IMG/VR virus record: IMGVR_UViG_3300049172_000080
Span: 31,701 to 95,700 of that record
From: a virus
Reading direction: 5' to 3' (one strand)
Length of the DNA stretch: 64,000 nucleotides
In this document: one piece after another, positions 1,633-62,280 of the stretch
Position numbering within the stretch: the first letter of the stretch is position 1
How the letters are laid out: every line of letters begins with the position of its first letter
Made by a program: the position numbers and the translations under genes
The notes under the pieces: generated by a model
Databases searched by the model: none
The model's input: the letters and a program-made list of their open reading frames with translations, nothing else
What the model was told of the DNA's origin: nothing

Positions 1633-2733
1633 TCACAGGAACCGGTCGACCAGGCCCTCGTATACCTTCACGGCCGCCGCCGCGTGCGTGCGCTTGAGCG
1701 CCTCGTCGTCCCGGCGACGGATGTAGCGCATCGTCGTGGAAATGTGGCTGTGGTCGGCGAACCGGCGGATATCGTCCGGCGTTGGCTTCCCGTCCTTCGA
1801 CGCCAGACCCTCGTCGTACATGTGGGTCAGCTTGCTGGCCCTCAGGACATGCGGGGTGAGGTCCCGGCCCGGCAGCACACCGGCCGCACGGCCGAGGCGG
1901 TTCAACAGCCGGTCCACGGCGTGCCGGTCCATCGGCCGGCCGCCGTCATCGAGCAGCAGGTGCCCGGAGGTGCGGCCCTCCCAGCACACCGCGCCCAGCT
2001 CGCACAGCTTCGGCGGAAGGGTGAACTTCCGGCCCTTGCCGCCCTTGCGGGTCAGGTCCAGCTTGCACTCCCCGCCGGACGGCTTCATGTGCTGCATCCC
2101 GGCCGCGCAGCACTCCGAGACGCGGCCGGCCAGCGTGTAGATGAGCACCGGCACGAGGGCCTGGCGCGGGGTCTGCGCCTGCTCCACCACAGCCTGGAAC
2201 TCAGGCACTTCGAGGATCGGCGTCATCGCCGCCTCGTCGTGCTGGTCGATCACCGGCCGGTCGTACCGGGTGATGGGGTTGATGATCTCCAGCCGGGTAC
2301 GGAACTTGGTGTACTCGATCAGCGAAGTCAGCGAGGACACCAGCCGGTTGACCCGGCGCGGCCCGAGCCCGATGTCCGTGGTCCAGGCCCTCCAGGCCGG
2401 GATGACGTCGGGGGTGATCGCCCCGAGGTACCAGGGCTCAGTACCGACCAGCTCCCGGGCGGCGCGTGCCCAGTGGCGGACGTCGTCGGCGTACTCGCGC
2501 CGGGTGCCGTCGCTCAGCCTCTCGGAGTTCAACCACCCCACCACGTGCTCGAACGTCTCGGGTGCGCACAGCTCGTGAAGCAGGTCGAGCCGGTGGACGC
2601 GCGGCCCGAGCCGGCGGTTCCTCGGGTCGCGCGGGGCGACCGTGCCCAGTTTCTCGCGCAGGCCCAGCACGGTACGCAGCGCCGCGTTCCCGTCGGCCGC
2701 GATGGTGGTGGGCTCGGTTGGAGCGAGTGTCAC
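1633..2733 (-). CDS. int: tyrosine recombinase / integrase
   Basis: AGRVSE (box I Arg), PHVLRAS (HxLR) and HSHISTTMRYI (His..Tyr) catalytic motifs. The GTG start overlaps the upstream stop (GTGA). Confidence 0.85.
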   Translation of the reverse strand: MTLAPTEPTTIAADGNAALRTVLGLREKLGTVAPRDPRNRRLGPRVHRLDLLHELCAPETFEHVVGWLNSERLSDGTRREYADDVRHWARAARELVGTEPWYLGAITPDVIPAWRAWTTDIGLGPRRVNRLVSSLTSLIEYTKFRTRLEIINPITRYDRPVIDQHDEAAMTPILEVPEFQAVVEQAQTPRQALVPVLIYTLAGRVSECCAAGMQHMKPSGGECKLDLTRKGGKGRKFTLPPKLCELGAVCWEGRTSGHLLLDDGGRPMDRHAVDRLLNRLGRAAGVLPGRDLTPHVLRASKLTHMYDEGLASKDGKPTPDDIRRFADHSHISTTMRYIRRRDDEALKRTHAAAAVKVYEGLVDRFL

Positions 2734-3203
2734 GGCGGATCCCAGATCGCCCCGCCCAAGCCAGCGGGGACAGCGCTGAATTCGCAATCGGTCCACCGAC
2801 AGACGTCCTCGGCTGCCGGGCCGTACTGGACGTACCAGGCGTGGTCGTGGAGTCTCTCGTCGCTCTCGGAAGCCTCAGCCGCCCACTCTTCGTCTGTTGT
2901 CGCCCACTCGTCCCGGTGTGCGAGCAGGATACCGAAGCCCCGGATCTGCCTATCAGGATCGCGGCGGTACGGCGTCCCGGCTTCCATGACGAGGTCACCC
3001 AACTCGGGGTCGCGCATACGTGCGTCCAGTTCGGCGACCTTCGGGGCCGGGTTGCCTACAGTCACCGCATCGCGAAGGGCGCCCGCAACGATGATCATGT
3101 GTCGACGGAGGGCGGTTGCCTTGTCGTCCAGGTCCAGCAGACCATCTCTGCGCGCGGTTCCGGAGACGCCCTCGTAGGGCTGCGGGTATCGGGTGTCGCT
3201 CAA
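2730..3203 (-). CDS. hypothetical protein (157 aa), co-transcribed with int
   Basis: TTG start preceded by the leader variant GACCACGGAATGAGGAACC. Acidic, coding-like composition. Confidence 0.55.
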   Translation of the reverse strand: MSDTRYPQPYEGVSGTARRDGLLDLDDKATALRRHMIIVAGALRDAVTVGNPAPKVAELDARMRDPELGDLVMEAGTPYRRDPDRQIRGFGILLAHRDEWATTDEEWAAEASESDERLHDHAWYVQYGPAAEDVCRWTDCEFSAVPAGLGGAIWDPP

Positions 3204-3245
3204 GGTTCCTCATTCCGTGGTCGTGAGTGTCACGGCTGATGAGCC

Positions 3246-4551: not shown

Positions 4552-4590
4552 GGGTTGTGCCCCTGCCCGGACCATGATTTAATTAAGTCA
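4552..4590 (+). promoter_or_regulatory. Conserved phage promoter cassette (copy c)
   Basis: GGGTTGTGC-N17-TTTAAT within TGATTTAATTAAGTCA. The -35 element overlaps the end of the preceding CDS. Confidence 0.6.
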
Positions 4591-8794: not shown

Positions 8795-10651
8795 GTGCCG
8801 TGGTACGACGCATTCCGGGGGCGTGTGGCCCGGGAGCCTGCCCCGCTGCCCCAGTCGCCGCCGGAGGCGCTGACGGCCGCCGCTGCTCCGCCTCCCGGCC
8901 CCGAGACCAAGTTCCTGCGCCGCACAGAGCAGTGGCAGGAGGAGGTCTGGCGCTTCCACGACACGCTCGGCGAGTTCAATTACGGCGTCGGGTGGTTGGC
9001 CAACATGCTGTCCCGGGTGCGCCTGCGCGCCGGCCGCCTGAAGCCGGGCTCCGATGAACCGGACATCGTCACCTCCGGTACGGCCGCTGACCTGATGATG
9101 CTGTTCGGCGGAGGGGTCGCCAGTCAGTCACAGCTCATGAGGCGCCTGACCGTACAGCTCTCCCTCCCGGGCGAGGGGTACCTGGTCGGCGAGACAGTGG
9201 GCAAGACCGAACGCTGGCAGGTCCGTTCCGTCGACGAGATCCGCGTGCAGTCCGGCAAATACCAGGTGATGGACGAAGAAAGCGCCACCACCGGCCAGGA
9301 CTGGCGCGACCTCGCCGAGGATCACCACGTCGTCCGCGTCTGGCGCCCGCACGACCGGTACTACCACATGGCAGACTCCCCGGCGCGCAGCGCCCGCGAC
9401 ATCATGCGAGAGCTGGAGCTGGTCAACCGGAAGATCACGGCCGAGTACCTCTCCCGCCTGGCCTCCGCCGGACTCCTCCTGCTCCCCGATGAGCTGAGCT
9501 TCCCGGTCCGCGAGGAGTTCGCCAACGACCCGGACAATGCCAACCCGCTGATGTCCGAGTGGATCGAGATTGCCGCGACGGCGATCCAGAACCCGGGAAC
9601 CGCGTCCGCCGTGGTTCCCATTCCGCTGGTCGGTCCGGCCGAGGCGATCGACAAGGTCAAGCACGTCGACTTCACGTTGAAGATCGACGAAAAGATTATC
9701 GAGAAGCGGGACAGCGCGATCAAGCGCCTGGCAACCAAGTTGGACATGCCGGCCGACGTGCTACTGGGTCTGGGTGACGTCAACCACTGGTCTGCCTGGC
9801 AGTTGGAGGAGGGCGCTCTCAAGACGCATATCGCCCCCATCGCTGAGCTGATCTGCGACGCCCTCACGCGCGGCTATCTCCAGCCCCGGCTGGAGGCGTC
9901 CGGCGAGGATCCGGCCGCCTGGGTCGTCTGGTACGACATGAGCGAGCTGGCTCTGAGCCCGGACCGCAGCGGCAACGCGACTCTGGCCTACGACCGGATG
10001 GAGCTGGGTGGCGCCGCGTACCGGCGAGAGCTGGGGTTCGACGAGGACGACGCGCCTTCGCCCGAAGACTTGAAGGAACAGGCCCTGAAGGTCATCATCC
10101 GCACGCTGCCGTCCGGCGCCGCGTCCGCCCTCGCCCAGCTCATCAGCGAGGACGTCCCGCAGATCGTCCCCGTCTCCCCGCAGGACCCCGGGACCGCCGA
10201 GGCCGTGCAGCAAGGCGACACCCCGCCGCCGGCGAACCAGCAGCCGACCGAGGAGGGCGCGGGCCGCGCGGCGCCGCCGTCCGACGAGCCGTCGCCGACG
10301 CAGGACCGCACCGGGCCGCCCTCCCGGGACCAGCGCGCCACGGCCGAGCGGGCGCAGCTCCTCGTGCAGCAGGCCCGGACGCAGCACATGCTCCGAGTCG
10401 GTGCGGCCAACCGGTGGGACCTGCTGCATCCCGGCATCTGCGGCGAGCACGAGTACTCCTGCCCGTTCACACACGCAGTCGCCACGGCGGCCCCGTCCGT
10501 ACGGCCCGGGACGTCGGGGACGTACCTGTGCCACCTGGACGCCTTCGGCCGCCTAGTTCTCGACGGCCGTAGTCCCTACGCGGACACCGCCGCCATGATC
10601 TCCACGTCACTGGTACCGAGGGCGGTGAACGGCCATGCCCCCGCGCACTGA
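8795..10651 (+). CDS. portal protein
   Basis: 618 aa with a GTG start after GGGGAGG. Lies immediately upstream of the MuF/protease fusion and the capsid gene. Pro/Gln-rich C-terminal tail. Confidence 0.7.
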   Translation: MPWYDAFRGRVAREPAPLPQSPPEALTAAAAPPPGPETKFLRRTEQWQEEVWRFHDTLGEFNYGVGWLANMLSRVRLRAGRLKPGSDEPDIVTSGTAADLMMLFGGGVASQSQLMRRLTVQLSLPGEGYLVGETVGKTERWQVRSVDEIRVQSGKYQVMDEESATTGQDWRDLAEDHHVVRVWRPHDRYYHMADSPARSARDIMRELELVNRKITAEYLSRLASAGLLLLPDELSFPVREEFANDPDNANPLMSEWIEIAATAIQNPGTASAVVPIPLVGPAEAIDKVKHVDFTLKIDEKIIEKRDSAIKRLATKLDMPADVLLGLGDVNHWSAWQLEEGALKTHIAPIAELICDALTRGYLQPRLEASGEDPAAWVVWYDMSELALSPDRSGNATLAYDRMELGGAAYRRELGFDEDDAPSPEDLKEQALKVIIRTLPSGAASALAQLISEDVPQIVPVSPQDPGTAEAVQQGDTPPPANQQPTEEGAGRAAPPSDEPSPTQDRTGPPSRDQRATAERAQLLVQQARTQHMLRVGAANRWDLLHPGICGEHEYSCPFTHAVATAAPSVRPGTSGTYLCHLDAFGRLVLDGRSPYADTAAMISTSLVPRAVNGHAPAH

Positions 10652-13622
10652 CCACCAGCACCCGCCGCTCGTGACGGCAGCCGCCGACGGCTCGCACACG
10701 CAGGGCTGCATGATCGCCCTCATGCCGGCGGCAGAGAACGCAGAACGCTTGGCGATACCGGGCGGGGAACCGGCCGAGGAGCTGCACTGCACGCTGCGCT
10801 ATCTGGGCAAGGCAGACACGCACGGCGCTGACGCGCGCACGTCCCTCATAGAGGAGATGCGCAGGCTCAGCCGAGATCTTCCGCCGATCACGTCCAAGAT
10901 CTTCGGGGCCGCGCACTGGAACGGTAATGGCCCCGAGCCGTCATGGGTGTGGTCCGTAGGGGACCTGCCTGACGGGGTGTCTTTGAACGCCGCTCACGAG
11001 ATGGCCAACGAAGCCGTGTGGGCGACGGCCCTTGAAGTCCCCCGACCGCACAGCCCCTGGGTCGCCCACATCTGCGCCGCGTACAGCGATGACCCGGAAT
11101 TCCTCGCGGAGATGGAGCAGCGGCTCGGCGAGGTGACGTTCGACCGCATCCGGGTCAGCTTCGGTGACGAAGACCACGACATCCCGCTGACCGGCGACGC
11201 GGTGACGGCCGCCGCCGGGCCGTTGCGTCGGGAGCCGACCGAGCTGGAGATGGCTTCGCGCGTCGACTTCGCCTCCGTGCACCGCGAGTGGGAGGCGGCG
11301 ACGAACCGGGCGATGCAGTCACTGAGGTCTACGACGGCCGCCTGGCGCCTGGACCTGCGGCAGCAAATCGCCCGCGACCTCGCCGACGACGCCCTGGACT
11401 CCATCCCCGAGCTGACCCTGGACAGCCGGGCCGCCACGGCCACGCTGCTCAGCCTCATGGAGGAGTACGCGGTCAAGGCCGGTCGGGCGTGCCAGCGCGA
11501 GGCGGAGCAGCAAGGCATCGCCGTGCCGGACTGGTCACTGCCCGACGGCGGCGAAGACGCGGTCACCGCCGCGCTCACCGGGCGGCGACTGCTGACGTCC
11601 GTCGCGGAGCTGACCAGCGACCTCATGTCCGGCGCATTGCTGACGGCCGCGAAGCGGAAACTCTCCGGCCTGCTGCGCTCGAACCGGCCGACGAACCAGA
11701 TCGCTGCCGAGGTGGATCGGGAGCTGGCCACGGTCGACGACACCACCGTGCGCGCCGCCGTGGGCTCCGCGATGACGGCCGCTCAGAACGCCGGACGGTA
11801 CGCCGTGATGGAAGCCGCTCCGCTGGCGCAGTCGTACGTGGCCAGCGAGATCCTGGACCGCCGCACGTGCGAGCCGTGCAAGGACATCGACGGCCGTACC
11901 TTCACCTCCCTGGACGGCGCCGTGGCGGAGTACCCGGTCATGGGCTACCGCGACTGCACCGGCGCCCGCTACGGCAACGCCTGTCGTGGCTTCATCATCG
12001 CCGTCTGGCAGGAAGTGCGAAGCCCGGCGACTACGGCGAGCGCCGATACCCAACCGGCCGCACAGGACGCGGCGAAAGGAGATCAGTCCATGACGACCGA
12101 AGCAGCGACCGAAGCGACCGAGGCCCTGAGCAAGGGCGACCCGAACCCTGGCACGCCGAAGGACAAGCGGCTCAAGGAGAACCAGAAGGCGGCCGAGGAG
12201 AAGCAGTGCCCGCCCGGCATGGAGCTGGACGAGGAGTCTGGCGAGTGCGTGCCGGAGTCCGATGAGGAAGAGGCGGCCGGGGGCACGACGGCGCTGCGCG
12301 GCGAGCACGGCCCGGAGACCCTGGCCCACGGCGCGGCGGCTGACGCCGAGAAGGTGACCGGCCCGCCGGTCAGCGAGATGGGCGCCGGGGACACCGCGCC
12401 GTGGCGTGGCCCGCTGACCGTGGAGGGCATAGAGACCGGCGACGGCCGCGAGTTCAAGCCGGACGCACTCACCTGGGCTGATCTGCCTCTGCCGCTGCGC
12501 TGGAACAAAGAGGACTCCCACGGCGGGGAACCGCACACCGTGGCGGTCAATGTCGGCCGCATCGACAAGGTGTGGCGCGAGGACGGCGGCCTGGTCATGG
12601 GCGAGGGCGTGCTGGACCTGTCCACCGAGGACGGCCGCACCGTCCACGGCAAGATCAAGGGCCAATTCCTGCGCGGGGTGTCCGTGGACGTTGACTCCAT
12701 CAAGGACGCCGACATGGAGCTGGTGTGGCCGGCCGACCCGGACGCCGACGGCGAGGGCTCCCCGTTCGACATGCTGTTCGCGTCGCCGGAAAAGGTGGTT
12801 TTCAACCGAGGCCGCATCCGCGCGGCGACGCTGGTGGACATCCCGGCGTTCGCCGAGGCGTACATCGCGTTGCTGGACGAGGCGGGGGCCGTCGTCGCCG
12901 GCGGGGAGCCGATCGGCGCGGTGCGTGAGACGCGTGTCCGGTCGGTTCAGGCGCGCACGGTGGAGGCGCCGCTGCGTCCGCCGGCCGGCTGGTTCGCCAA
13001 CCCGGGTCTGTCCGTGCCGACGGGGATTACCGTCACGCCGGAGGGTCGGGTCTACGGGCACGCCGCGCTGTGGGGGACGTGTCACATCGGGCAGGAGGGT
13101 GTGTGCGTCACCCCGCCGCACGAGGAGTCCCACCCGTACTACATGACCGGCAACGTCTGGACGGAGGACGGCTCGTCGGTGTCCGTCGGCCAGATCACCG
13201 TCGGCACCGGGCACGCGCCACTGTCCTACGGCTACCGGGCGGCGGCTGACCATTACGACAACACCGGCGCGGCCGTGGCCGACGTCGCGGTGGGCAACGA
13301 CGCGCACGGTATCTGGGTCGCCGGGTCCATCCGCCCCAAGACCCCGGAGTCGCGCATCCACGAGCTGCGCGCGGCTGGTCAGGTGTCCGGCGACTGGCGC
13401 CGCATCGGCGGGAACCTGCGCCTGGTGGGTCTGCTCGCGGTGAACGTCCCCGGCTTCCCGGTCCCCAAGCTGAAGACGCACCTGACGTCCGGTCAGCAGC
13501 TCGCCCTCGTCGCGGCGGGTATCCCGCAGCTCAGTGAATCGCTGAGCGAGGAGGAGCTGGACCAGTGGGCTTACCGCCGCGTCCTCAAGACCCTGTCCCG
13601 ACAGGTACACGGAGAGGAGTGA
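10635..13622 (+). CDS. 2H-phosphoesterase (LigT-like) / MuF-like / capsid maturation protease fusion protein
   Basis: N-terminal LHCTLRYLG and VAHICAAY (HxT/HxC) motifs. Central MuF-type segment: RRTCEPCKDIDGRTF..GYRDCTG..CRGFII. C-terminal prohead-protease-like segment: PLRWNKEDSHGG..GHAALWGTCHIG. Confidence 0.7.
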   Translation: MPPRTDHQHPPLVTAAADGSHTQGCMIALMPAAENAERLAIPGGEPAEELHCTLRYLGKADTHGADARTSLIEEMRRLSRDLPPITSKIFGAAHWNGNGPEPSWVWSVGDLPDGVSLNAAHEMANEAVWATALEVPRPHSPWVAHICAAYSDDPEFLAEMEQRLGEVTFDRIRVSFGDEDHDIPLTGDAVTAAAGPLRREPTELEMASRVDFASVHREWEAATNRAMQSLRSTTAAWRLDLRQQIARDLADDALDSIPELTLDSRAATATLLSLMEEYAVKAGRACQREAEQQGIAVPDWSLPDGGEDAVTAALTGRRLLTSVAELTSDLMSGALLTAAKRKLSGLLRSNRPTNQIAAEVDRELATVDDTTVRAAVGSAMTAAQNAGRYAVMEAAPLAQSYVASEILDRRTCEPCKDIDGRTFTSLDGAVAEYPVMGYRDCTGARYGNACRGFIIAVWQEVRSPATTASADTQPAAQDAAKGDQSMTTEAATEATEALSKGDPNPGTPKDKRLKENQKAAEEKQCPPGMELDEESGECVPESDEEEAAGGTTALRGEHGPETLAHGAAADAEKVTGPPVSEMGAGDTAPWRGPLTVEGIETGDGREFKPDALTWADLPLPLRWNKEDSHGGEPHTVAVNVGRIDKVWREDGGLVMGEGVLDLSTEDGRTVHGKIKGQFLRGVSVDVDSIKDADMELVWPADPDADGEGSPFDMLFASPEKVVFNRGRIRAATLVDIPAFAEAYIALLDEAGAVVAGGEPIGAVRETRVRSVQARTVEAPLRPPAGWFANPGLSVPTGITVTPEGRVYGHAALWGTCHIGQEGVCVTPPHEESHPYYMTGNVWTEDGSSVSVGQITVGTGHAPLSYGYRAAADHYDNTGAAVADVAVGNDAHGIWVAGSIRPKTPESRIHELRAAGQVSGDWRRIGGNLRLVGLLAVNVPGFPVPKLKTHLTSGQQLALVAAGIPQLSESLSEEELDQWAYRRVLKTLSRQVHGEE

Positions 13623-31621: not shown

Positions 31622-31938
31622 CGTCAGGGGAGATGGTGAACGTCTGGGGCAGCGCGATCGCTCTTGTCGGGTGCCTGTCCTTCGTCGCCGTCTACACCCT
31701 GCTCGCCCGATGGTGGCGGACGCTCGTCGGCCGGCTGCTCGTCATCAAGGCTCTGGCCATTGCGGCGTTCATGGCCATCTCCATCTGCGTCACCGCGTTC
31801 GGGGTCGACGCGGAGGCCCTGCGCACGCTGCGGGGCATCCTCGCCGCGCTGTTCGGAGTGCTGATGCTGTATCAGGCGTGGCTCGTAGGCCACACGCAGA
31901 TCAAGGGGGCCCGCCGTGGCGGCACCGATGAACCCTGA
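31618..31938 (+). CDS. multi-pass membrane protein, holin-like
   Basis: Three or four hydrophobic segments. Overlaps the endolysin start. Confidence 0.55.
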   Translation: MTSGEMVNVWGSAIALVGCLSFVAVYTLLARWWRTLVGRLLVIKALAIAAFMAISICVTAFGVDAEALRTLRGILAALFGVLMLYQAWLVGHTQIKGARRGGTDEP

Positions 31939-36076: not shown

Positions 36077-36220
36077 GTGGTGCCTTCCTTGGTCAGCGGT
36101 GCGGTGCAGGGGGTGGGTGCTCCCGGCCGGTCACGATCCGGCACTTCCGCCTTGAGAGGGCGATGGACATCCGTTATCCCACGGGAGCGGGTTGGGACCG
36201 AACGGTCCCGAACAGCGTGG

Positions 36221-36511
36221 TCAGTCGACGATCTCGACGCCGGGCCAGTAGGCGACGATGCCGAGCCCCATCGAGTCGGTGCGGGTGAGCCGGGCCAGGC
36301 GCATCGCGTCGTCTGCCCGGTCGTCCTCGGTCATCGACACGGCGAGCGCCACGAGGAACTCCGTCAGCTTGCCGGTGCTGGGCAGCGTCACGGCTGCGCA
36401 CGTACCGGACCCCATGCCCTGGCCGTTGTACGTCGGGCGGATGCTGTACTCGTCCTCCCAGATTTCGGCCGTCTCGGCGGCGCCCTGGACCTCACGGCGG
36501 GTGATCTTCAT
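36221..36511 (-). CDS. hypothetical protein (96 aa)
   Basis: ATG after GGGACGAGGAACCGACC. Promoter copy f lies upstream. Confidence 0.55.
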   Translation of the reverse strand: MKITRREVQGAAETAEIWEDEYSIRPTYNGQGMGSGTCAAVTLPSTGKLTEFLVALAVSMTEDDRADDAMRLARLTRTDSMGLGIVAYWPGVEIVD

Positions 36512-36558
36512 GGTCGGTTCCTCGTCCCTTGGGTGGTTCAGCCGGCGTCCCCGGCTGA

Positions 36559-36623: not shown

Positions 36624-36896
36624 TCAGTTGAGTGCGGCCATGCGGTGCTGCTCTTCCACGCCGATCCGGGCGACGGTCCGCAGGGTCTCTCCCTCGGCAC
36701 AGTCCGGCCGGTCGTCGCGGCGGCAGTCGGCACAGGCGGCGATGTGCGTCGGGTAGTCGGAGAACGCGCCGTAATACGGCAGCGTCTCCACCAGCTTTAT
36801 TTCGGAGGTGCCGAGGCTGTCCAGGCTCGTCTGCCCCTCCGCCTCGGCGGCGTCCCGTATGTCGTCCAGGGTCCAGCCCACCCACATTGTGCGCAT
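36624..36896 (-). CDS. hypothetical protein (90 aa)
   Basis: ATG after CTGACCAAGGAAACGAGGAATCGACC. Confidence 0.55.
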   Translation of the reverse strand: MRTMWVGWTLDDIRDAAEAEGQTSLDSLGTSEIKLVETLPYYGAFSDYPTHIAACADCRRDDRPDCAEGETLRTVARIGVEEQHRMAALN

Positions 36897-36939
36897 GGTC
36901 GATTCCTCGTTTCCTTGGTCAGCCCCGGTCCAACCGGGG

Positions 36940-36978
36940 TGATTTGATTAAATCATAGGGTGTTGGGCGAGACAATAC
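36940..36978 (-). promoter_or_regulatory. Conserved phage promoter cassette (copy g), in the divergent region with parA
   Basis: Minus-sense TTGTCT-N17-TTTAAT. Palindrome TGATTTGATTAAATCA. Confidence 0.6.
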
Positions 36979-37015: not shown

Positions 37016-37810
37016 ATGGATGCATCCACCACCACGCGCATCATCGCAATCACGAACCAGAAGGGCGGCGTGGGCAAGACCGCCACGACCGTCGGCACCG
37101 CCGGAGCCCTCGCCGAGATGGGCCACCACGTCCTCATCGTCGACCTGGACCCACAGGGCCACCTCACCAACGCGGTCAAGCTGCCGAAGGCGCCCTCCGG
37201 CCCCGGCGCCGCGAACCTCTACCGCGCGCTCATCGGCGAGTACACAGACGGCGTCGCCGGTCTGGTCGTCACCCACTCCGAGCCCGCAGGCCGCATCGAC
37301 GTCATCCCGAACGCGCTCGAAATGTTCATGGCCGTCCGGGATATCGACAAGACCAAAGCTCGCGAGCACCGCCTGGCGCGGCTGCTGGCACCTGCGCGGG
37401 GCGTCTACGACTTCGTCCTCATCGACGCCCCTCCGTCCCTGGACATCCTCACGGACAACGCATTGACGGCCGCCGACGGCGTGCTGGTCCCGGTCCAGGC
37501 CGAGGACTCCAGCCTGGACGCGCTCAGCCTGCTGCTCCCGCAGATCGAAGCTGTCGACGTAGACCTGCGAGACAAGCCGCTGGAGCTATACGGCATGGTC
37601 GTCAACCTGCTGCGCCGGCCGGTGACCAAGCTCGCCGAGTCTGTCCTGGACGAGCTGAAGAAGCTGGAGGGTCTGCCCATCATCGCCACCGTGCCGCAGT
37701 CCGTCACCATCACCGAGGCGTGGCGGTACGGACGGACGACGGTGGCATATGCGCCCGACTCCGAGCACGCCGAGGCGTACCGCACCATCGCCAGGGCGGT
37801 GAGCCGGTGA
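37016..37810 (+). CDS. parA: ParA-family partition ATPase
   Basis: Deviant Walker A NQKGGVGKTATT. DLDPQ and IDAPPSL motifs. Confidence 0.85.
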   Translation: MDASTTTRIIAITNQKGGVGKTATTVGTAGALAEMGHHVLIVDLDPQGHLTNAVKLPKAPSGPGAANLYRALIGEYTDGVAGLVVTHSEPAGRIDVIPNALEMFMAVRDIDKTKAREHRLARLLAPARGVYDFVLIDAPPSLDILTDNALTAADGVLVPVQAEDSSLDALSLLLPQIEAVDVDLRDKPLELYGMVVNLLRRPVTKLAESVLDELKKLEGLPIIATVPQSVTITEAWRYGRTTVAYAPDSEHAEAYRTIARAVSR

Positions 37811-39488: not shown

Positions 39489-40303
39489 TCCTCCCCGGCG
39501 AGCAGCTTGAGCGACTCGACGGCCGCGTAATCCACAGCCGCGAACTCGTCGCCCTCGAACGCCATCTTGTCCCCGACCAGCTCCAGGGCGTAGCGCAGCA
39601 TCGCGCGCTCGGCGGAGTTCAGCCCCGGCCGGACCCCTGTCGACGTCACGTGGACCAGCGACTTGGTGTGGCTGGGTGTACCGAGCTGCTCCCGGCCGGC
39701 GCACCACGAACACCCCTCCACGATCAGCCCGTCGTGCTCCGTGTCGTGCAGCGCCTTCACGTGCGTGCACGGGGTGAGGGAGACGGGCGGGCCAGTCTTC
39801 TCCGGGGCCTGGTCCGCCCGGATCTGCTGAGCCAGCTCGTCGAGACCGGTGGGCCGCCACGCGGGGTCCTCGACAGTCACCTCGTCGGCAATCCGCCGTA
39901 CCTCGGCCGTGGCCCACCGGGCTCCTTCGCAGAAGTCGGCGGTGCTCCCCGCCGTCTGCGGGAGGTCTTCCGAGTCGACCAACTCAGCCGTGCGGTGCAG
40001 GATGCGCGACACCAGGCCGACGGAGTCCGCGTCGTCCTCGGGGGCCGGGACGTAGCGGTACCAGCCGAGCCGGTCCATGTCCGCGCTGTCGACGAACCGG
40101 CCGCGCATCGCGGGCTCGGGCACGAACCACGGCCCGTTGCCGGGGTCGTAGAACGCGAACAGGCGCCGGTCCGGAGATAGGCGGAACTCCCATCCCTCCG
40201 GCACGGGTGGGCGGTTGGACGGAGAGCTGTCGATGTTGTGACCAAGGGCTTCACGGATCTCCCTCATGGTCATTGCGCGGCCGGTGGGCCGAGAGTCGGT
40301 CAT
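39485..40303 (-). CDS. hypothetical protein (272 aa)
   Basis: ATG (MTDSRPTG) after GACCATGGAAACGAGGAGCG. Confidence 0.55.
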   Translation of the reverse strand: MTDSRPTGRAMTMREIREALGHNIDSSPSNRPPVPEGWEFRLSPDRRLFAFYDPGNGPWFVPEPAMRGRFVDSADMDRLGWYRYVPAPEDDADSVGLVSRILHRTAELVDSEDLPQTAGSTADFCEGARWATAEVRRIADEVTVEDPAWRPTGLDELAQQIRADQAPEKTGPPVSLTPCTHVKALHDTEHDGLIVEGCSWCAGREQLGTPSHTKSLVHVTSTGVRPGLNSAERAMLRYALELVGDKMAFEGDEFAAVDYAAVESLKLLAGEE

Positions 40304-40338
40304 CGCTCCTCGTTTCCATGGTCGTCGTCTGCCTGCTG

Positions 40339-40436
40339 TGGTGGGCCCGCCCGGAGTCGAACCGGGGGCCTCGCAGAGCGCGTGGGAACCGACCAAGGTT
40401 CGCGCTCGGATGCGAGGCTGCCGCGCTACGGGGCCC
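40339..40436 (-). ncRNA. tRNA-like element (98 nt, non-canonical)
   Basis: Minus-sense GGGCCC(C)G...CCCGG-TTCGACT-CCGGG-CGGGCCC-A-CCA. It has a canonical T-arm, a 6/7-bp acceptor stem, a discriminator and an encoded CCA. The middle is aberrant: G at position 33 in the best anticodon-loop reading and a variable region of about 26 nt. Confidence 0.45.
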
Positions 40437-40500
40437 TCGTGCCGCAGGCCGGTGAGCCTGCGAGCGGTGCCGGGATCACGGCTCCCGGCCGGCCGTCGTG

Positions 40501-41388
40501 CTACAGGTTCCAATCAGCGGCAGGGTCCGGGTCAGAAACGGTCTCCCGACCGGACAGGTTCGCCGATGGCGCGGCGCTCTGCCCCGCCACCCGCGCCGCG
40601 TTGGCCATGTCGGCGTCGGTCTGCTGCGTGCCACCGCCGTTGACCAACAAGTAGAACCGGGCTTCGTCGGCTACGGTGGCGCAGTCCTTGGCCTCGGCGA
40701 CCATGAGGCCGAAGCGGCTGCGGGTGAACCGCTGGCCGACGTCGGTGAGGCCGTTGTGGCGGACGTACGGGCCGTCCTCAGTGTCCTCAGTCGTCTCCAC
40801 GAACTTGGCCGGGACCCAGGAGGCCGGGATGGCGAACTCGCTGCGGAACCACATGAGCGCCGTGGTCAACCGCTGCTTGCCGTCGATGACGGCCCACATG
40901 CCCTTGCCCGTCTCGTACGGGTCGGGGTTGCCGGCCCGGCGCCACGCCTCATTGCCCCGGTCTGCCAGGGTGACGACGTGGGTGGGCAGGCCGCGCAGCC
41001 AGGACTCCACGAGCGCGATGCGTTGGTCCAGCGTCCACACGCTGCCGCGCTGGTAAGGCGGGTCCAGCAGCAGGGCGCCGTCGTTGATGAGGTCCACCAG
41101 GCCCTTGGCCTCGCGGTAGGACGGGTTCAGGCTGGTGTGTTCCAGCGGGGCGGCGGTCTGCCGGGTCATGGCCGGTTCCTCGTTTCCGTGATCGTCGTTC
41201 CAGGGTGTGCCGTCTGGGTTTTCGGGGCGGCAGGACCGGGCCGCGTAGCGGACGTCCACGATGTCCTCCCACGGCTCCGGGTCACGCGGCCGGCGGGGGT
41301 CCCAGCGGACCGAGTCTCCCCACACTGTCCGGATCACTGCCCCGCGCTTCTGCGCGCGGAGCAGGTCCCGGGTCGTCCAGGCGGCCAT
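40501..41388 (-). CDS. DUF262 (ParB-like/GmrSD N-terminal type) domain protein
   Basis: DPPYQRGSVW and VIDGKQRLTT motifs. The ATG at 41388 overlaps the upstream stop. An internal in-frame leader plus ATG occurs at 41169. Confidence 0.6.
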   Translation of the reverse strand: MAAWTTRDLLRAQKRGAVIRTVWGDSVRWDPRRPRDPEPWEDIVDVRYAARSCRPENPDGTPWNDDHGNEEPAMTRQTAAPLEHTSLNPSYREAKGLVDLINDGALLLDPPYQRGSVWTLDQRIALVESWLRGLPTHVVTLADRGNEAWRRAGNPDPYETGKGMWAVIDGKQRLTTALMWFRSEFAIPASWVPAKFVETTEDTEDGPYVRHNGLTDVGQRFTRSRFGLMVAEAKDCATVADEARFYLLVNGGGTQQTDADMANAARVAGQSAAPSANLSGRETVSDPDPAADWNL

Positions 41389-41615
41389 CAGAGGGCGGTG
41401 ACGGTGAACTTGCCGCAGTCCACTTCGTTGTCGTCGATGAGTCGGCCGCCCAGCATGTCGTCGTTCAGGTCACCACCGATGGTTCCCCGGCTGACGTGGT
41501 TGACGTACCAGGCGAGTTCCTGGATCAGCTCGTCACGGTCGTCCGCCGTGATGATGGCGGGCTTCGCGTTGAAGTCCTGGCCGACGGGGGCGAAGTCGAC
41601 GCGGTACGTGGTCAT
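41388..41615 (-). CDS. hypothetical protein (75 aa)
   Basis: ATG after GGAAACGAGGAACCGACC. Promoter copy h lies upstream. Confidence 0.55.
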   Translation of the reverse strand: MTTYRVDFAPVGQDFNAKPAIITADDRDELIQELAWYVNHVSRGTIGGDLNDDMLGGRLIDDNEVDCGKFTVTAL

Positions 41616-41653
41616 GGTCGGTTCCTCGTTTCCGGCCGGTCTGTCCGGCTCAC

Positions 41654-41693
41654 TGATTTAATTAAATCAGAAAGTCCCGGGGCACACAACCCC
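41654..41693 (-). promoter_or_regulatory. Conserved phage promoter cassette (copy h)
   Basis: Minus-sense GGGGTTGTGT-N17-TTTAAT. Perfect palindrome TGATTTAATTAAATCA. The -35 element lies inside the hairpin GTCCCGGGG..CCCCGGGAC. Confidence 0.65.
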
Positions 41694-43246: not shown

Positions 43247-44230
43247 TCAGGCCGCCAGCACCTCCTCGCGCTCCCCGATGCCCGACGCGGCCCGGACGGC
43301 CGCGAGGGCCAGGGCCTTAGGAACGGCGTTGCCAACCTGGAGGTACTGCTGCCCGGACTTCCCCTGGAAAACGAGGCCCGGCCGGAACCCCTGAAGCGCG
43401 GCGCACTCAGCCACGGTCGGCCGCAGGTGTTTGCACGGCTCGTCCGGGTCGTCGTGGTCCCGGCCGCACAGAGGCATGCGGTCCTGCCAGGCGCTGGTGC
43501 CCATGGCCCGTCGCATCGCCTGCCGGGAACCGTTGCCGAACGGCTCCGCCCCGCCGGTGTAGACCCCGCCGCCGGTGACCGCCGGGGACGGGCGCCGGGT
43601 GTACCCCCAGCCGATGACATCCGCCATGGCGACGAGCGGCGGCTGCCCGGGCCCGCCGTGCGTCGGCGCGGGCAGGGCCACCTCCCGCACCCGGGAGGCG
43701 AGCAGGATGGCACGGGGCCGATTCTGCCCGGCACCGTGCCGCTCAGCGTGCAGGACGCCGGCCGCCGTGCTGTAGCCCCAGCCGTCCAGGATCTCCGCCA
43801 CGTGCGCCCACACGGGGAGCACGGCGTCGACCTGCTCCAGGACCACCCACTGGGGGCGCAGAGCGTACAGCCATCGCACGGGCTCGGCGGTCAGGATGGA
43901 CCTGGGGTCCAGGCACCCGGCCCCGTGCACCGTGCGGGTGTCCCGGCCCTGGGCCAAGTCGTCGATTGCCTCGTGGACCAGTGGCAGATCAGTAAGCCCC
44001 AGTTTCCGGCCGGACTTCCCGAACGGCGGGCAGGGCGGCCCACCCACCAGTGCCTCGGTACCGGCGGACGAGTCCACGGGGTACTCGGTGACGTCGCACT
44101 GAGTGGTCCAGTGCTTCGCCATCTTGCGCGTTGCGCACGTAGCCGGGTCCATCTCGAACCCCCGGCTCTGCATCCCGAGACTGCGCAGGACTTCGCTGAA
44201 GCCGATGCCGGCGAATATCTCCGTGATCAT
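43247..44230 (-). CDS. DNA (cytosine-5) methyltransferase
   Basis: Motif I IFAGIGF, motif IV GGPPCPPFG, and QVGNAVP. ATGA overlap with the upstream gene. Confidence 0.85.
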   Translation of the reverse strand: MITEIFAGIGFSEVLRSLGMQSRGFEMDPATCATRKMAKHWTTQCDVTEYPVDSSAGTEALVGGPPCPPFGKSGRKLGLTDLPLVHEAIDDLAQGRDTRTVHGAGCLDPRSILTAEPVRWLYALRPQWVVLEQVDAVLPVWAHVAEILDGWGYSTAAGVLHAERHGAGQNRPRAILLASRVREVALPAPTHGGPGQPPLVAMADVIGWGYTRRPSPAVTGGGVYTGGAEPFGNGSRQAMRRAMGTSAWQDRMPLCGRDHDDPDEPCKHLRPTVAECAALQGFRPGLVFQGKSGQQYLQVGNAVPKALALAAVRAASGIGEREEVLAA

Positions 44231-44724
44231 TCCTCGTCCTCCAGCTCGTCGTCGGCGGTGCCGCCGTTCCAGCACCGCGCGCAGTACCAGCCGGACGTCA
44301 CCGGCCCGCGCTGGGACTTCAGCCCGGGGTGGGTCTCCTGCGTCACCTCGAACAGCCGCTCCGTGCCGTGGCTGCACGCCTCGCACCGCAGGACGGCGAT
44401 GGACTGGTGGACCAAGCCGCGCCGGCGCAGCTCGTCGCGCAGGGCCCGTGTGTAGGCGTAGACCTCTCGCTCGGCCGCTTGGTCGGGCAGCCTGCCGATC
44501 ACCTCGGCGAGCTGGTACCGACGCAGCAACTGGTCGGCGGTCACGCGCTTCCAGTGGGCGCCGCCGAGACCGGAGTACCGCCGGGCTGCCTGCCTCAGCG
44601 CGTCGAACTCCTCAGCCGTCGGGGCGACGTAGCCCTCCGGCGGCCAGACCTTCACGCGGGGCGCGTAGCCACCGGACTGCTTCGCCTTCAGCCGGGCCCG
44701 GGGCGACAGAGTGTCGACTGCCAT
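44227..44724 (-). CDS. hypothetical zinc-ribbon protein (165 aa)
   Basis: CEAC...CARC pairs and an acidic tail. Confidence 0.55.
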   Translation of the reverse strand: MAVDTLSPRARLKAKQSGGYAPRVKVWPPEGYVAPTAEEFDALRQAARRYSGLGGAHWKRVTADQLLRRYQLAEVIGRLPDQAAEREVYAYTRALRDELRRRGLVHQSIAVLRCEACSHGTERLFEVTQETHPGLKSQRGPVTSGWYCARCWNGGTADDELEDEE

Positions 44725-45299: not shown

Positions 45300-45515
45300 T
45301 CAGCGTCGGGCGGTCCGACGCCGTTGGGCGAGCAGACTGACCGGCAATCCGATGACGACCGGGCCCAACAGCAGTGCGGTGCAGGCGACGACCAGACGGG
45401 AAGTGCTGAGCCCGGACGAGGGGTGTGAGAGAACGACGGCGGTGAACACGGCGAACCCCGCGACGAAGCCGAGGATAGGTCCGCCGTAGGCGAGGAGCGT
45501 GAAGCTGCGGGACAT
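45300..45515 (-). CDS. small membrane protein (71 aa)
   Basis: Two hydrophobic segments. ATG after GGAGGAACCGACC. Confidence 0.5.
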   Translation of the reverse strand: MSRSFTLLAYGGPILGFVAGFAVFTAVVLSHPSSGLSTSRLVVACTALLLGPVVIGLPVSLLAQRRRTARR

Positions 45516-45575
45516 GGTCGGTTCCTCCAGGGTCAACAGGCGAAGGCCCCGCCGGGTGGCGGGGCCGGGGGTCGG

Positions 45576-48388: not shown

Positions 48389-48439
48389 CAGTTCCGTGGT
48401 CAGGGTGGTGCAGGGCCCCGGAATCGCCAACCGACTCCG
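48389..48439 (-). repeat. 51-bp direct repeat, copy B
   Basis: See copy A. Same position relative to the downstream gene start. Confidence 0.7.
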
Positions 48440-50427: not shown

Positions 50428-50446
50428 AGGTTCCTCGTTTCCGTGG

Positions 50447-50776
50447 TCAGCCTGCGTTGCTCAGGTACTCGGCGAGGTCGCGCTGCATGCCGTCCCAGAC
50501 GGCTAGGGCGAACTCCGCCGCGATGACGCTGCGGCCGTCGTGGTTGGCGTGCGCCCGGTCGAGCCGCCGCTGGAAGGCGTCCGTGATGGCCTGCGCGCTG
50601 AGCCCGTCCCGCGTGCGCAGGTAGGACAGCGTGCGGGTGGTGACCAGGAAGCCGTCCGTGGCCATGCCCTTGGCGACCTCGGGCTCCATGTCGCCGCTCA
50701 TCACCTTGCGCATCAGGTACGCGTCGGCTTCCTCGTGCGCGTGCGCCAGCAGCGGCCGGGGGTTCGTGTCCGTCAT
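50447..50776 (-). CDS. hypothetical protein (109 aa)
   Basis: ATG after GACCAAGGAACGAGGGACCC. Confidence 0.55.
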   Translation of the reverse strand: MTDTNPRPLLAHAHEEADAYLMRKVMSGDMEPEVAKGMATDGFLVTTRTLSYLRTRDGLSAQAITDAFQRRLDRAHANHDGRSVIAAEFALAVWDGMQRDLAEYLSNAG

Positions 50777-51281: not shown

Positions 51282-51314
51282 GATGTCCTGCTTTCCTTGG
51301 TCGGTCCTTCTCGA

Positions 51315-51354
51315 TGACTTAATTAAATCATAGCTCCGGGGGAGGCACAACCCC
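51315..51354 (-). promoter_or_regulatory. Conserved phage promoter cassette (copy n)
   Basis: Minus-sense GGGGTTGTGC-N17-TTTAAT. Palindrome TGACTTAATTAAATCA. Confidence 0.6.
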
Positions 51355-55658: not shown

Positions 55659-55689
55659 CGCTTCCTCGTTCCGTGGTCGGCGGGGTGGG

Positions 55690-59519: not shown

Positions 59520-60089
59520 CTACACCACGTTGAAGCCGCCACGGCGGCCCCCAGGACGGTGAACACTGCGGTCTGACTCCAGCTCGCCCATGAAACCGTC
59601 GAACCGGCGCCACGCCTTGACCGCACTCTGAGCCCCACCAGCACACGCGTTGGCCATGTGGTCGAGATCCTTGCCGATCAGACGCAGCGTGTTGGCCAGG
59701 CTGGCACGCTGCATGGGGTTCATCCACCCTTCGTGGGCCTGCTTCACCTGCGCCCGCGCAGCGGCCTTGAGCTGGCCTTCTGCCAGCTTCGCGCTGACGG
59801 CGAGGTAGTTGAGAATGGCCCGGTACGCCTCGCAGAAGGCGTGCAGGTCGTCCTGGTTGCTCAGCTCCATCGACCCGATGGACTGGGCGAGTTGAGCGAT
59901 GCCCTGCCCGCGCGGGCCGCCCGGCCGGGACGGCTTGTGACCTGCGGCTTTGGAGCTGCCGCCGTTCGACGGGAGCGGGTTGCCCTGACCGTCCAGGCCT
60001 CGCTTGTGGAGCTGGTCGTTGGTCTGTCCGTTGGCCCGGCCCGAAGCGCTGAACGGGTTGTCGACGTGGTTCTGTCCGATACGACTCAT
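59520..60089 (-). CDS. hypothetical protein (189 aa)
   Basis: Gly/Asn-rich N-terminus and a helical C-terminus. Leader AGGAATCAGGAAGAGGAATCAGGA. Confidence 0.55.
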   Translation of the reverse strand: MSRIGQNHVDNPFSASGRANGQTNDQLHKRGLDGQGNPLPSNGGSSKAAGHKPSRPGGPRGQGIAQLAQSIGSMELSNQDDLHAFCEAYRAILNYLAVSAKLAEGQLKAAARAQVKQAHEGWMNPMQRASLANTLRLIGKDLDHMANACAGGAQSAVKAWRRFDGFMGELESDRSVHRPGGRRGGFNVV

Positions 60090-62235: not shown

Positions 62236-62280
62236 TGATTTCCTTAAATCATCCTACCCGGGTCGGCTCGGCACAACCCC
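62236..62280 (-). promoter_or_regulatory. Conserved promoter cassette variant (copy r, 22-nt spacer)
   Basis: Palindrome TGATTTCCTTAAATCA. Minus-sense GGGGTTGTGC lies 22 nt upstream of TTTAAG. Confidence 0.5.

Follow-up and report, generated by a model that had tools for sequence, protein, structure and literature searches.

Why would a virus keep, inside a block of small genes, a gene that begins and ends like a transfer RNA (tRNA) and carries a long hairpin in the position of the anticodon arm? The question is raised by a 64,000-nucleotide stretch of viral DNA (positions 31,701 to 95,700 of IMG/VR record IMGVR_UViG_3300049172_000080, hereafter the window), whose minus strand encodes a 98-nucleotide (nt) RNA at positions 40339-40436. 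An earlier note on this DNA had proposed that the RNA is a tRNA-scaffolded antisense RNA directed against a conserved messenger RNA (mRNA) leader. Comparison of the window copy with its homologues indicates that the RNA family is tRNA-derived, structured, under selection and not decoding, and that the tip of its long arm is complementary to the leader in question. Of the proposal, the scaffold is borne out, and the antisense function is strengthened, at the level of sequence, by the invariance of the tip, by its complementarity to the leader and by the co-occurrence of the two.

Read from 40436 to 40339, the minus strand gives GGGCCCCGUAGCGCGGCAGCCUCGCAUCCGAGCGCGAACCUUGGUCGGUUCCCACGCGCUCUGCGAGGCCCCCGGUUCGACUCCGGGCGGGCCCACCA, a gene delimited from the sequence itself, ARAGORN, the minimum free energy (MFE) fold and 12 homologues. 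The RNA is laid out as an acceptor stem, a single-stranded remnant of the D arm, one long arm in three segments, a T arm and ACCA. Its 5' acceptor strand, GGGCCCC (40430-40436), pairs with positions 40343-40349 through six G-C pairs and one C.C mismatch, and the 3' end of the gene (40339-40349) consists of the acceptor strand CGGGCCC (40349-40343) followed by the discriminator A and an encoded CCA (40342-40339). The T arm, CCCGG-UUCGACU-CCGGG, occupies 40350-40366 and is evident in the sequence, and its pair 49:65 varies in homologues. The tRNA 3' half and the matching 5' strand described in the earlier note are thus both present, at these minus-strand coordinates. The D-arm remnant, GUAGCGCGGCAG (40418-40429), lacks a D stem in the family alignments; the GGCAG within it is invariant across the family and stands at the place of G18G19 in the canonical members.

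The long arm (40369-40417) is placed in the anticodon-arm position by the MFE fold, by changes among the homologues and by Rfam alignment. It runs CCUCGC, AUCC, GAGCGCG, AACC[UUGGUC]GGUU, CCCA, CGCGCUC, U and GCGAGG, that is, a basal helix (CCUCGC/GCGAGG), an internal loop (AUCC/U), a 7-bp helix (GAGCGCG/CGCGCUC) and the tip, which in the window copy folds as AACC[UUGGUC]GGUU with the bulge CCCA. At the tip lies a 14-mer, CCUUGGUCGGUUCC (40385-40398), identical in 13 of 13 family members, whose complement is GGAACCGACCAAGG. The MFE fold of the whole RNA comprises the acceptor stem, the T arm and this one long arm (-54.1 kcal/mol, z = -2.93), and the arm is the long, irregular, UUGGUC-capped hairpin that had been offered as an alternative fold.

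ARAGORN calls the element a tRNA-Ser(cga) of 97 nt, with G33, an unpaired 'variable arm' of about 26 nt and a D stem of two pairs only (G-C and G.U), exactly the class-II-like reading that the earlier note had arrived at. This call, which recurs in three homologues, together with the encoded CCA and the canonical T loop, speaks for a decoding or suppressor tRNA of odd shape, or for a decaying tRNA pseudogene. The RNA indeed keeps an acceptor stem with six of seven pairs, the A and CCA, and a 5-bp T stem with a UUCRANY loop, but a decoding molecule would have to function with G33, a two-pair D stem and an unpaired variable region of 26 nt. A D stem of 3-4 bp is absent from the window copy and from four homologues (L006, L007, L012 and L083; homologous loci are given by L number), and there is no 5-bp anticodon stem with a 7-nt loop, U33 and a purine at 37, the distal part of that arm having been replaced. 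Nor is the anticodon stable among homologues: ARAGORN reads Ser-CGA in the window and three of them, and in others Val-AAC or no tRNA at all, despite the same central sequence. The long arm does not fit a class II tRNA or tRNA-Sec either, since relatives with a canonical body have a variable loop of 4-5 nt (AGAC or AAGAC) and their long arm occupies the position of the anticodon arm, not that of the variable arm.

Rfam agrees that the window copy has left the tRNA mold. A search of the 401-nt region around it returned no tRNA and no other family, even at E<=10, so the copy falls below the 29-bit gathering threshold of the tRNA model (RF00005), whereas a genuine tRNA-Glu(CUC) at 36118-36188 (minus strand), used as a control, scored 49 bits. 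Both results come from small-region searches, used in place of a whole-window search at gathering thresholds that was empty but also missed the real tRNA-Glu, a filter artefact, and is not relied on. The tRNA-Glu has peculiarities of its own: its T loop, AUCGUGA, is unusual, and its CCA is not encoded. The contention that the body of the 98-nt RNA does not fold for decoding is supported both by this lack of an Rfam match and by the unstable anticodon.

Pattern scans recovered 12 further distinct copies of the RNA, all on related contigs of 60-99 kb from Streptomyces phages or plasmid prophages, bringing the family to 13 distinct sequences of two body types. Eight copies (L003, L023, L025, L053, L118, L121, L122 and L144) have a canonical tRNA body, with an acceptor stem, U8 and A9, a D arm of the form GCUC-AGUCAGGCA-GAGC, A26, a 3-4 bp remnant of the anticodon stem, a variable loop of 4-5 nt and a T arm. 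In the other five (the window copy, L083, L006, L007 and L012) the body is reduced: the D stem is gone, a 12-nt strand with GGCAG is retained and the basal helix is longer. CCA is encoded in 11 of the 13 members, L121 and L122 reading ACUC. Two canonical-bodied members pass the RF00005 threshold (L025 with 43.2 bits and L003 with 34.8 bits), and in both the Rfam alignment places a 34-nt insertion exactly at the distal anticodon stem and loop. Because eight members have a canonical D arm, two pass the Rfam tRNA model and the insertion replaces the distal anticodon arm, the family is best described as tRNA-derived but non-decoding. The extended central arm on a tRNA-like scaffold, recognized earlier in the window copy alone, is therefore a family trait, as the homologues keep a canonical tRNA body with the same hairpin.

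The stems of this body covary. RNAalifold run on a mixed MAFFT alignment gave a poor consensus, the two body types misaligning in the 5' region, and covariation was accordingly assessed by hand segmentation and a separate alignment of the canonical-bodied members. In this set 96.1% of cells pair, compared with 23-49% when partners are slid, three pairs show two-sided changes (acceptor 4:69, D 12:24 and T 49:65), and the covariation score of 0.102, compared with 0.059 in shuffles, was reached by one of 500 shuffles. Individual stems show the same behavior: acceptor pairs 4:69, 5:68 and 6:67 covary among homologues; the D arm GCUC/GAGC of the eight canonical members goes from U-A to A-U; and T-stem pair 49:65 passes from C-G through U.G to U-A. 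Within the long arm, the basal helix of L006, L007 and L012 changes from U-A through U.G to C-G and from G-C to G.U, and in L122 the 7-bp helix is longer by 2 bp, inserted on both strands. In a pseudogene, neither an unchanging 14-mer and 7-bp helix nor covarying stems would survive in 13 diverged copies. Taken together, these findings leave us with high confidence, well short of serious doubt, that this is a tRNA-derived, non-decoding structured RNA, and we regard a decoding, suppressor or decaying tRNA as highly improbable.

Two further sets of loci deserve mention. L026 and L027, which contain more distant homologues of the neighboring GmrSD_N gene (see below), have neither leader nor RNA and are perhaps unrelated phages. 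A tRNA-like gene on an unrelated viral contig (L029, 1430-1537; IMGVR_UViG_3300032893_000008) has the same T arm and acceptor 3' end and, apparently, a large insertion in the D region.

The tip, CCUUGGUCGGUUCC, is unchanged in all 13 copies, including those found with patterns that did not contain it. These tip-free patterns, one built from the T arm and acceptor strand and the other from the 7-bp helix and T loop, were run on viral, genome and metagenome collections and returned no family member with a different tip. The flanks of the 14-mer vary, with AA, AG, UU, AU or A before it and CA, UA, UC, AU or nothing after it, and the 4-bp apical stem of the window copy (AACC/GGUU) is absent in L118, L121 and L144. 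As the 14-mer is invariant while its flanks vary and the apical stem can be lost, selection acts on the sequence of the tip and not on the apical stem.

What the tip is complementary to is a leader that recurs throughout the window. The 8-mer GACCAAGG is found in 35 copies where 2.15 are expected, and heads the leaders of about 24 mRNAs, just 5' of the Shine-Dalgarno sequence; 24 copies stand in the full context GACCAAGGAA-N2-4-(G)AGGA(A)-N4-9-ATG/GTG, and the leader consensus is GACCAAGGAAaCGAGGAACCGACCAUG. Outside the element, the orientation of the local genes is shared by 33 copies and opposed by one, the top strand asymmetry of all 8-mers in the window. This agrees with the 8-nt antisense match reported in the earlier note, whose estimate of some 30 target mRNAs comes down to nearer 24, plus about seven variant leaders of the form GACCA[C/T/G]GGAA that change the middle of the target 8-mer (among them 48392-48401, 50439-50448, 55669-55678, 40314-40323 and 3213-3222, all on the minus strand). 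The leader also precedes three genes on the structural-gene (plus-strand) side. A copy of the antisense 8-mer at 40240-40247, inside the gene downstream of the RNA, is conserved in no homologue and was taken as chance, and a literature text search for the leader sequence gave unrelated primers only.

A second stretch of the tip matches the 10-mer GGAACCGACC, which is the consensus spanning the region from the Shine-Dalgarno sequence to the AUG. It does abut start codons, as had been claimed, though exact copies are confined to three leaders and are not found at many starts: 41616-41625, next to the ATG of gene 41388-41615; 36512-36521, next to the ATG of gene 36221-36511; and 45516-45525, next to an in-frame ATG at 45515 (all minus strand). 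With one mismatch allowed, 20 matches are found where 9.6 are expected.

On its 5' side the leader often has an AT-rich box, TGATTTAATTAAATCA, or a terminator-like hairpin. The box is near-palindromic and usually lies 10-25 nt upstream of a GACCAAGG leader, with approximate sites at 1233-1250, 4570-4590, 36935-36955, 41640-41660, 51310-51330 and 62240-62260. In this genome of 69% G+C, the sequence TTTAATTA occurs in nine copies, more than 400 times the mononucleotide expectation. The box is probably a phage promoter or operator.

The gene that immediately follows the RNA on its 3' side has one of the variants as its leader, GACCAUGGAAACGAGGAGCG (40304-40323, minus strand, AUG at 40303), with the mismatch in the middle of the 8-mer. 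In none of the 13 copies of the locus does this leader take the GACCAAGG form; the position is C in nine, U in two and G in one, with an insertion in the last. This point is weak, because GACCACGGAA leaders are also found elsewhere in the genome. When a further RNA was sought that would complement the variant leader GACCACGG, only matches in coding sequences came up.

A k-mer profile along the RNA places strand-biased targets only at RNA positions 39-46, within the tip. Beside GACCAAGG itself (33:1, sense to antisense), they are CGACCAAG (13:0), CCGACCAA (11:1), ACCGACCA (14:3), GAACCGAC (7:1) and GGAACCGA (7:0). The match can exceed eight nucleotides: six leaders start with ACCGACCAAGG, which makes an 11-nt match to the tip, and L118 and L144, which have UU 5' of the core and no apical stem, gain a 12-nt match to the commonest leader form, GACCAAGGAACG. 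Over the 24 leaders, the median energy predicted for a duplex with the 18-nt tip is -20.8 kcal/mol, compared with a mean of -10.7 kcal/mol for shuffled tips, none of which (0/200) reached the observed median; the strongest duplex, at -25.7 kcal/mol, is predicted for the full leader GACCAAGGAAACGAGGAAUCGACC (36897-36920, minus strand, AUG at 36896). As the two matches share the GGUC of the RNA, a single molecule can pair with only one of the two sites at a time. Every related locus shows the same leader, and the RNA is present in 12 of 12 viral contigs with several leader copies.

Several observations weigh against an antisense role. The uninterrupted match to most of the leaders in the window spans no more than 8 nt, and in the predicted fold two of these eight bases, together with all of the GGUU used by the second match, sit in a weak stem. 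Because the genome is GC-rich, 5.8% of randomly drawn sense segments also attain the median duplex energy observed. The co-occurrence of RNA and leader is not phylogenetically independent, coming from one phage lineage, and with tip and leader both invariant in that lineage there is no co-variation of regulator and target. The 7-bp helix that carries the tip never varies, its pairing being supported by one paired insertion only; the acceptor stem of most members is interrupted by a mismatch or bulge, an unusual feature in a tRNA-like RNA that is processed well; and a partial parallel in Cluster K mycobacteriophages, described below, is not conserved.

Some of these points would suit a different function, in which the conserved tip binds a protein or another RNA such as ribosomal RNA, as a decoy, sponge or assembly factor, and its complementarity to the leader is coincidental or indirect. 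An invariant 14-mer on a never-varying 7-bp helix is equally typical of a protein-recognition hairpin, and both the short contiguous match to most leaders and the missing co-variation are as expected for one. Such a tip would, however, have to be the complement of the most strand-biased 8-mer by accident, the odds of the first match falling anywhere in the RNA being about 91/65,536, and its next 6 nt would also have to match the Shine-Dalgarno-to-AUG consensus, a double coincidence within one 14-mer that is improbable; moreover, the UU variants lengthen the match to the leader. We consider a tip made for a protein or another RNA rather unlikely, while keeping it in view. That the RNA is instead a tRNA-scaffolded, trans-acting antisense RNA that pairs with the shared leader is the reading with the most support, though it seems to us, on the sequence evidence, an evenly balanced proposition.

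The position of the gene suggests how such an RNA might be made. It sits between co-directional genes, with the GmrSD_N gene upstream (40501-41388, minus strand), which encodes the N-terminal (DUF262) domain of GmrSD only, and the next leftward gene downstream. No sigma-70-type promoter or terminator belonging to the RNA gene itself was seen at the locus; an AT-rich box lies upstream of it at about 41.65 kb. Between the GmrSD_N stop codon and the RNA is a hairpin, CCGGGA-GCCGUGA-UCCCGG (40470-40488, minus strand), which is also found 5' of the RNA in nearly all homologues and could be a processing site or attenuator. In the window, an extra insert of about 30 nt separates this hairpin from the RNA. 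Between the CCA and the next start codon the sequence is conserved, even though the gene that follows is not the same in all relatives.

These features could also be read as those of an element acting mainly in cis, a tRNA-like punctuation mark at which RNase P and RNase Z would cut, uncoupling the stability or translation of the flanking genes and leaving the tip with a secondary role or none. The co-directional neighbors, the want of a visible promoter and terminator, the conserved hairpin just upstream and the preserved CCA-to-start sequence all fit such a mark. Punctuation, however, needs the acceptor and T arms only, and leaves unexplained both the invariant 14-mer on its long arm and the complementarity to about 24 distant leaders. 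As the main role of the RNA we therefore judge it improbable.

The wider genome bears on a last alternative, that the element works as DNA. The window is about 69% G+C. Genes for portal, MuF-like, major head and tape measure proteins lie on its plus strand, and a long leftward block of small genes begins at about 34.3 kb. A tyrosine recombinase gene (1633-2796, minus strand), a ParA gene (37016-37810, plus strand) and a C-5 cytosine methyltransferase gene (43247-44386, minus strand) are also present. At the nucleotide level, the locus matched none of the sequenced phages and plasmids searched, and the best identity of the major capsid protein to that of any sequenced phage is about 34%. Related stand-alone contigs of 92-96 kb occur in assemblies of Streptomyces sp. 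NRRL S-455, where the contig measures 95.7 kb, of S. africanus NRRL B-24243, where it measures 92.7 kb, and of Streptomyces sp. NPDC017936, and the other relatives are metagenome viral contigs of 38-99 kb. The source of the window is an undescribed Streptomyces siphovirus. The tyrosine recombinase, ParA, methyltransferase and GmrSD_N genes, together with the stand-alone Streptomyces contigs, suggest that it probably persists as a plasmid prophage, as P1 does. The plus strand further encodes a 995-aa protein (10635-13622) that joins an N-terminal RNA-ligase-like region (phrog_2659, residues 12-186) to a MuF/portal-associated head domain, an unusual fusion for a virion-associated protein.

Phage attachment (attP) sites often overlap tRNA 3' halves, and with a tyrosine recombinase in the window the element might be a recombination core acquired from a host tRNA gene, or else a reversed DNA-binding site shared with the leaders. 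The element, however, lies about 38 kb from the recombinase gene. An attP site would contain the 3' part of a tRNA alone, whereas here the tRNA-like gene is full-length, with covariation between its 5' and 3' halves. The relatives are stand-alone contigs in three Streptomyces assemblies, and ParA points to a plasmid prophage. As for a shared DNA-binding site, the 33:1 tie to gene orientation and the fixed distance to the start codon argue that the leader acts as RNA and not as duplex DNA. A DNA-level role has, in our view, very little chance of being correct. Both alternatives that the earlier note had listed, a degenerate or suppressor tRNA and a recombination target, are thus disfavored by the covariation, the invariant tip and the stand-alone contigs.

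How, then, might a tRNA-scaffolded antisense RNA work? A phage tRNA would have evolved into a non-decoding small RNA of about 98 nt that retained those parts of a tRNA that maturation recognizes, namely the acceptor stem, the T arm, the GG of the D loop and the discriminator with CCA. Because the RNA lies within an operon, shows no promoter of its own and has a tRNA-like acceptor/T domain, we infer that it is transcribed as part of an early leftward polycistronic transcript and cut out by RNase P and 3' processing (RNase Z), with the tRNA fold stabilizing the product. The longer helix in place of the anticodon arm would present CCUUGGUCGGUUCC, which would pair in trans, over 8-12 nt, with GACCAAGG immediately ahead of the Shine-Dalgarno sequence of about 24 mRNAs, a position within the region contacted by the 30S subunit. 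Alternatively, pairing with GGAACCGACC would cover the 3' part of the Shine-Dalgarno sequence and the spacer to the AUG.

The outcome would be coordinated control of the translation and/or stability of the leader-bearing mRNAs. With pairing sites in the 30S contact region or over the Shine-Dalgarno sequence and spacer, as for the C4 RNA of P1, repression by occlusion of the ribosome-binding region is the likeliest direction by analogy, and a switching off of early translation, the example given in the earlier note, may be one form that it takes. Protection of mRNA 5' ends is also possible, since the motif lies near the AT-rich box, a putative promoter, or terminator-like hairpins, and activation is a further, less likely direction. 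Charging or elongation factor Tu (EF-Tu) binding through the acceptor end and CCA might even couple such control to the translational state of the host, in the manner of a reversed T-box. The picture as a whole, a natural global riboregulator in which a tRNA carries a seed hairpin for an anticodon arm, is processed like a tRNA and governs a regulon of about 24-30 phage mRNAs, is one that we put forward tentatively, at somewhat less than an even chance.

Among known RNAs, the nearest in body are the canonical phage tRNAs, which share the acceptor stem, T arm, discriminator and CCA, and whose Rfam model some relatives of the window copy pass. Unlike them, the RNA has no 7-nt anticodon loop or stable anticodon, its arm is about three times the normal length, and the window copy has no D stem. 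The tRNA-like domain of transfer-messenger RNA (tmRNA) similarly combines an acceptor stem and T arm with a degenerate D region and no anticodon, but the present RNA is 98 nt long, has no tag reading frame and no pseudoknots, and has G-C or C.C, not G.U, at pair 3:70; ARAGORN reported no tmRNA in its scan of the element. Rfam models of Y-RNA-like RNAs gave no match at E<=10 in the 401-nt search. The termini of YrlA RNA lie in the Ro-binding stem, whereas those of the present RNA are at the acceptor end, the opposite topology.

On the side of the leader, the nearest parallel is the start-associated sequence (SAS) of Cluster K mycobacteriophages, a short, asymmetric, conserved motif near the start codons of many non-structural genes (PMC3203893). 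It extends past the Shine-Dalgarno core, and its authors left open a partner in the form of a host or phage RNA or a protein (PMC3203893); its role was still described as unknown in the literature of 2024-2025. The present leader is likewise a conserved, start-associated motif of an actinophage, but SAS differs in sequence (GGGAUAGGAGCCC) and position and has no known tRNA-like partner. In the Cluster K phage Anaya (L125, 39850-39905; record positions 59849-59904), the only reversed SAS copy (gene strand, GGCCUCCUAUCCC) is part of a long and stable hairpin, most of the copy forming the 10-nt apical loop, within the 385-nt gap between gp96 and gp97, and the hairpin region of this gap is conserved in 142 Cluster K phages. 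We considered this hairpin as a parallel and rejected it as support: Amelie retains the loop, Ekdilam has it in altered form, and Keshu and Yuna are without it, with SAS unchanged, and a loop lost where SAS is kept cannot count as independent support. Actinophage start-associated motifs have lacked a known partner since 2011, and an RNA whose tip is complementary to one is a concrete candidate.

In mode of action, the closest precedent is C4 RNA, to which the CI RNA of P4 is related (Rfam C4 family). No match to the C4 covariance model was found at E<=10 in the 401-nt search, and the likeness is one of function. C4 RNA of P1/P7 is processed by RNase P to about 77 nt from a longer transcript, and two of its short loops pair upstream of and at the ribosome-binding site (RBS) of the target (PMC5320573). 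The present RNA is also phage-encoded, its exposed tip is complementary upstream of the RBS (GACCAAGG(AACG), 8-12 nt) and at the RBS (GGAACCGACC, 10 nt), and the action proposed for it would, by analogy, be the same in kind. It differs in having its two complementary stretches overlap in a single tip and not in two loops, in facing about 24 dispersed candidate targets with a shared leader where C4 targets one immunity operon, and in its origin from a complete tRNA, T loop and D arm included, which C4 does not share.

In architecture, the match is with the tRNA scaffolds engineered by Ponchon and Dardel, in which a hairpin is substituted for the anticodon arm and the product is processed and stable in bacteria (PMC3753655). 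The arrangement is identical, with acceptor stem, T arm and D arm kept and a hairpin replacing the anticodon stem-loop, except that the scaffold is a man-made tool, that the RNA would be a natural example, and that its window copy also lacks a D stem. In the literature searched, no natural antisense RNA of a phage with a tRNA body was described. Since tRNA finders label such genes tRNA-Ser, tRNA-Val or nothing, RNAs of this kind are mis-annotated or missed in genomes. If the proposed role is correct, the RNA would be a clear case of a tRNA gene re-purposed as a riboregulator, with one small RNA driving a phage-wide post-transcriptional regulon, and would provide the first natural counterpart of the engineered tRNA scaffold.

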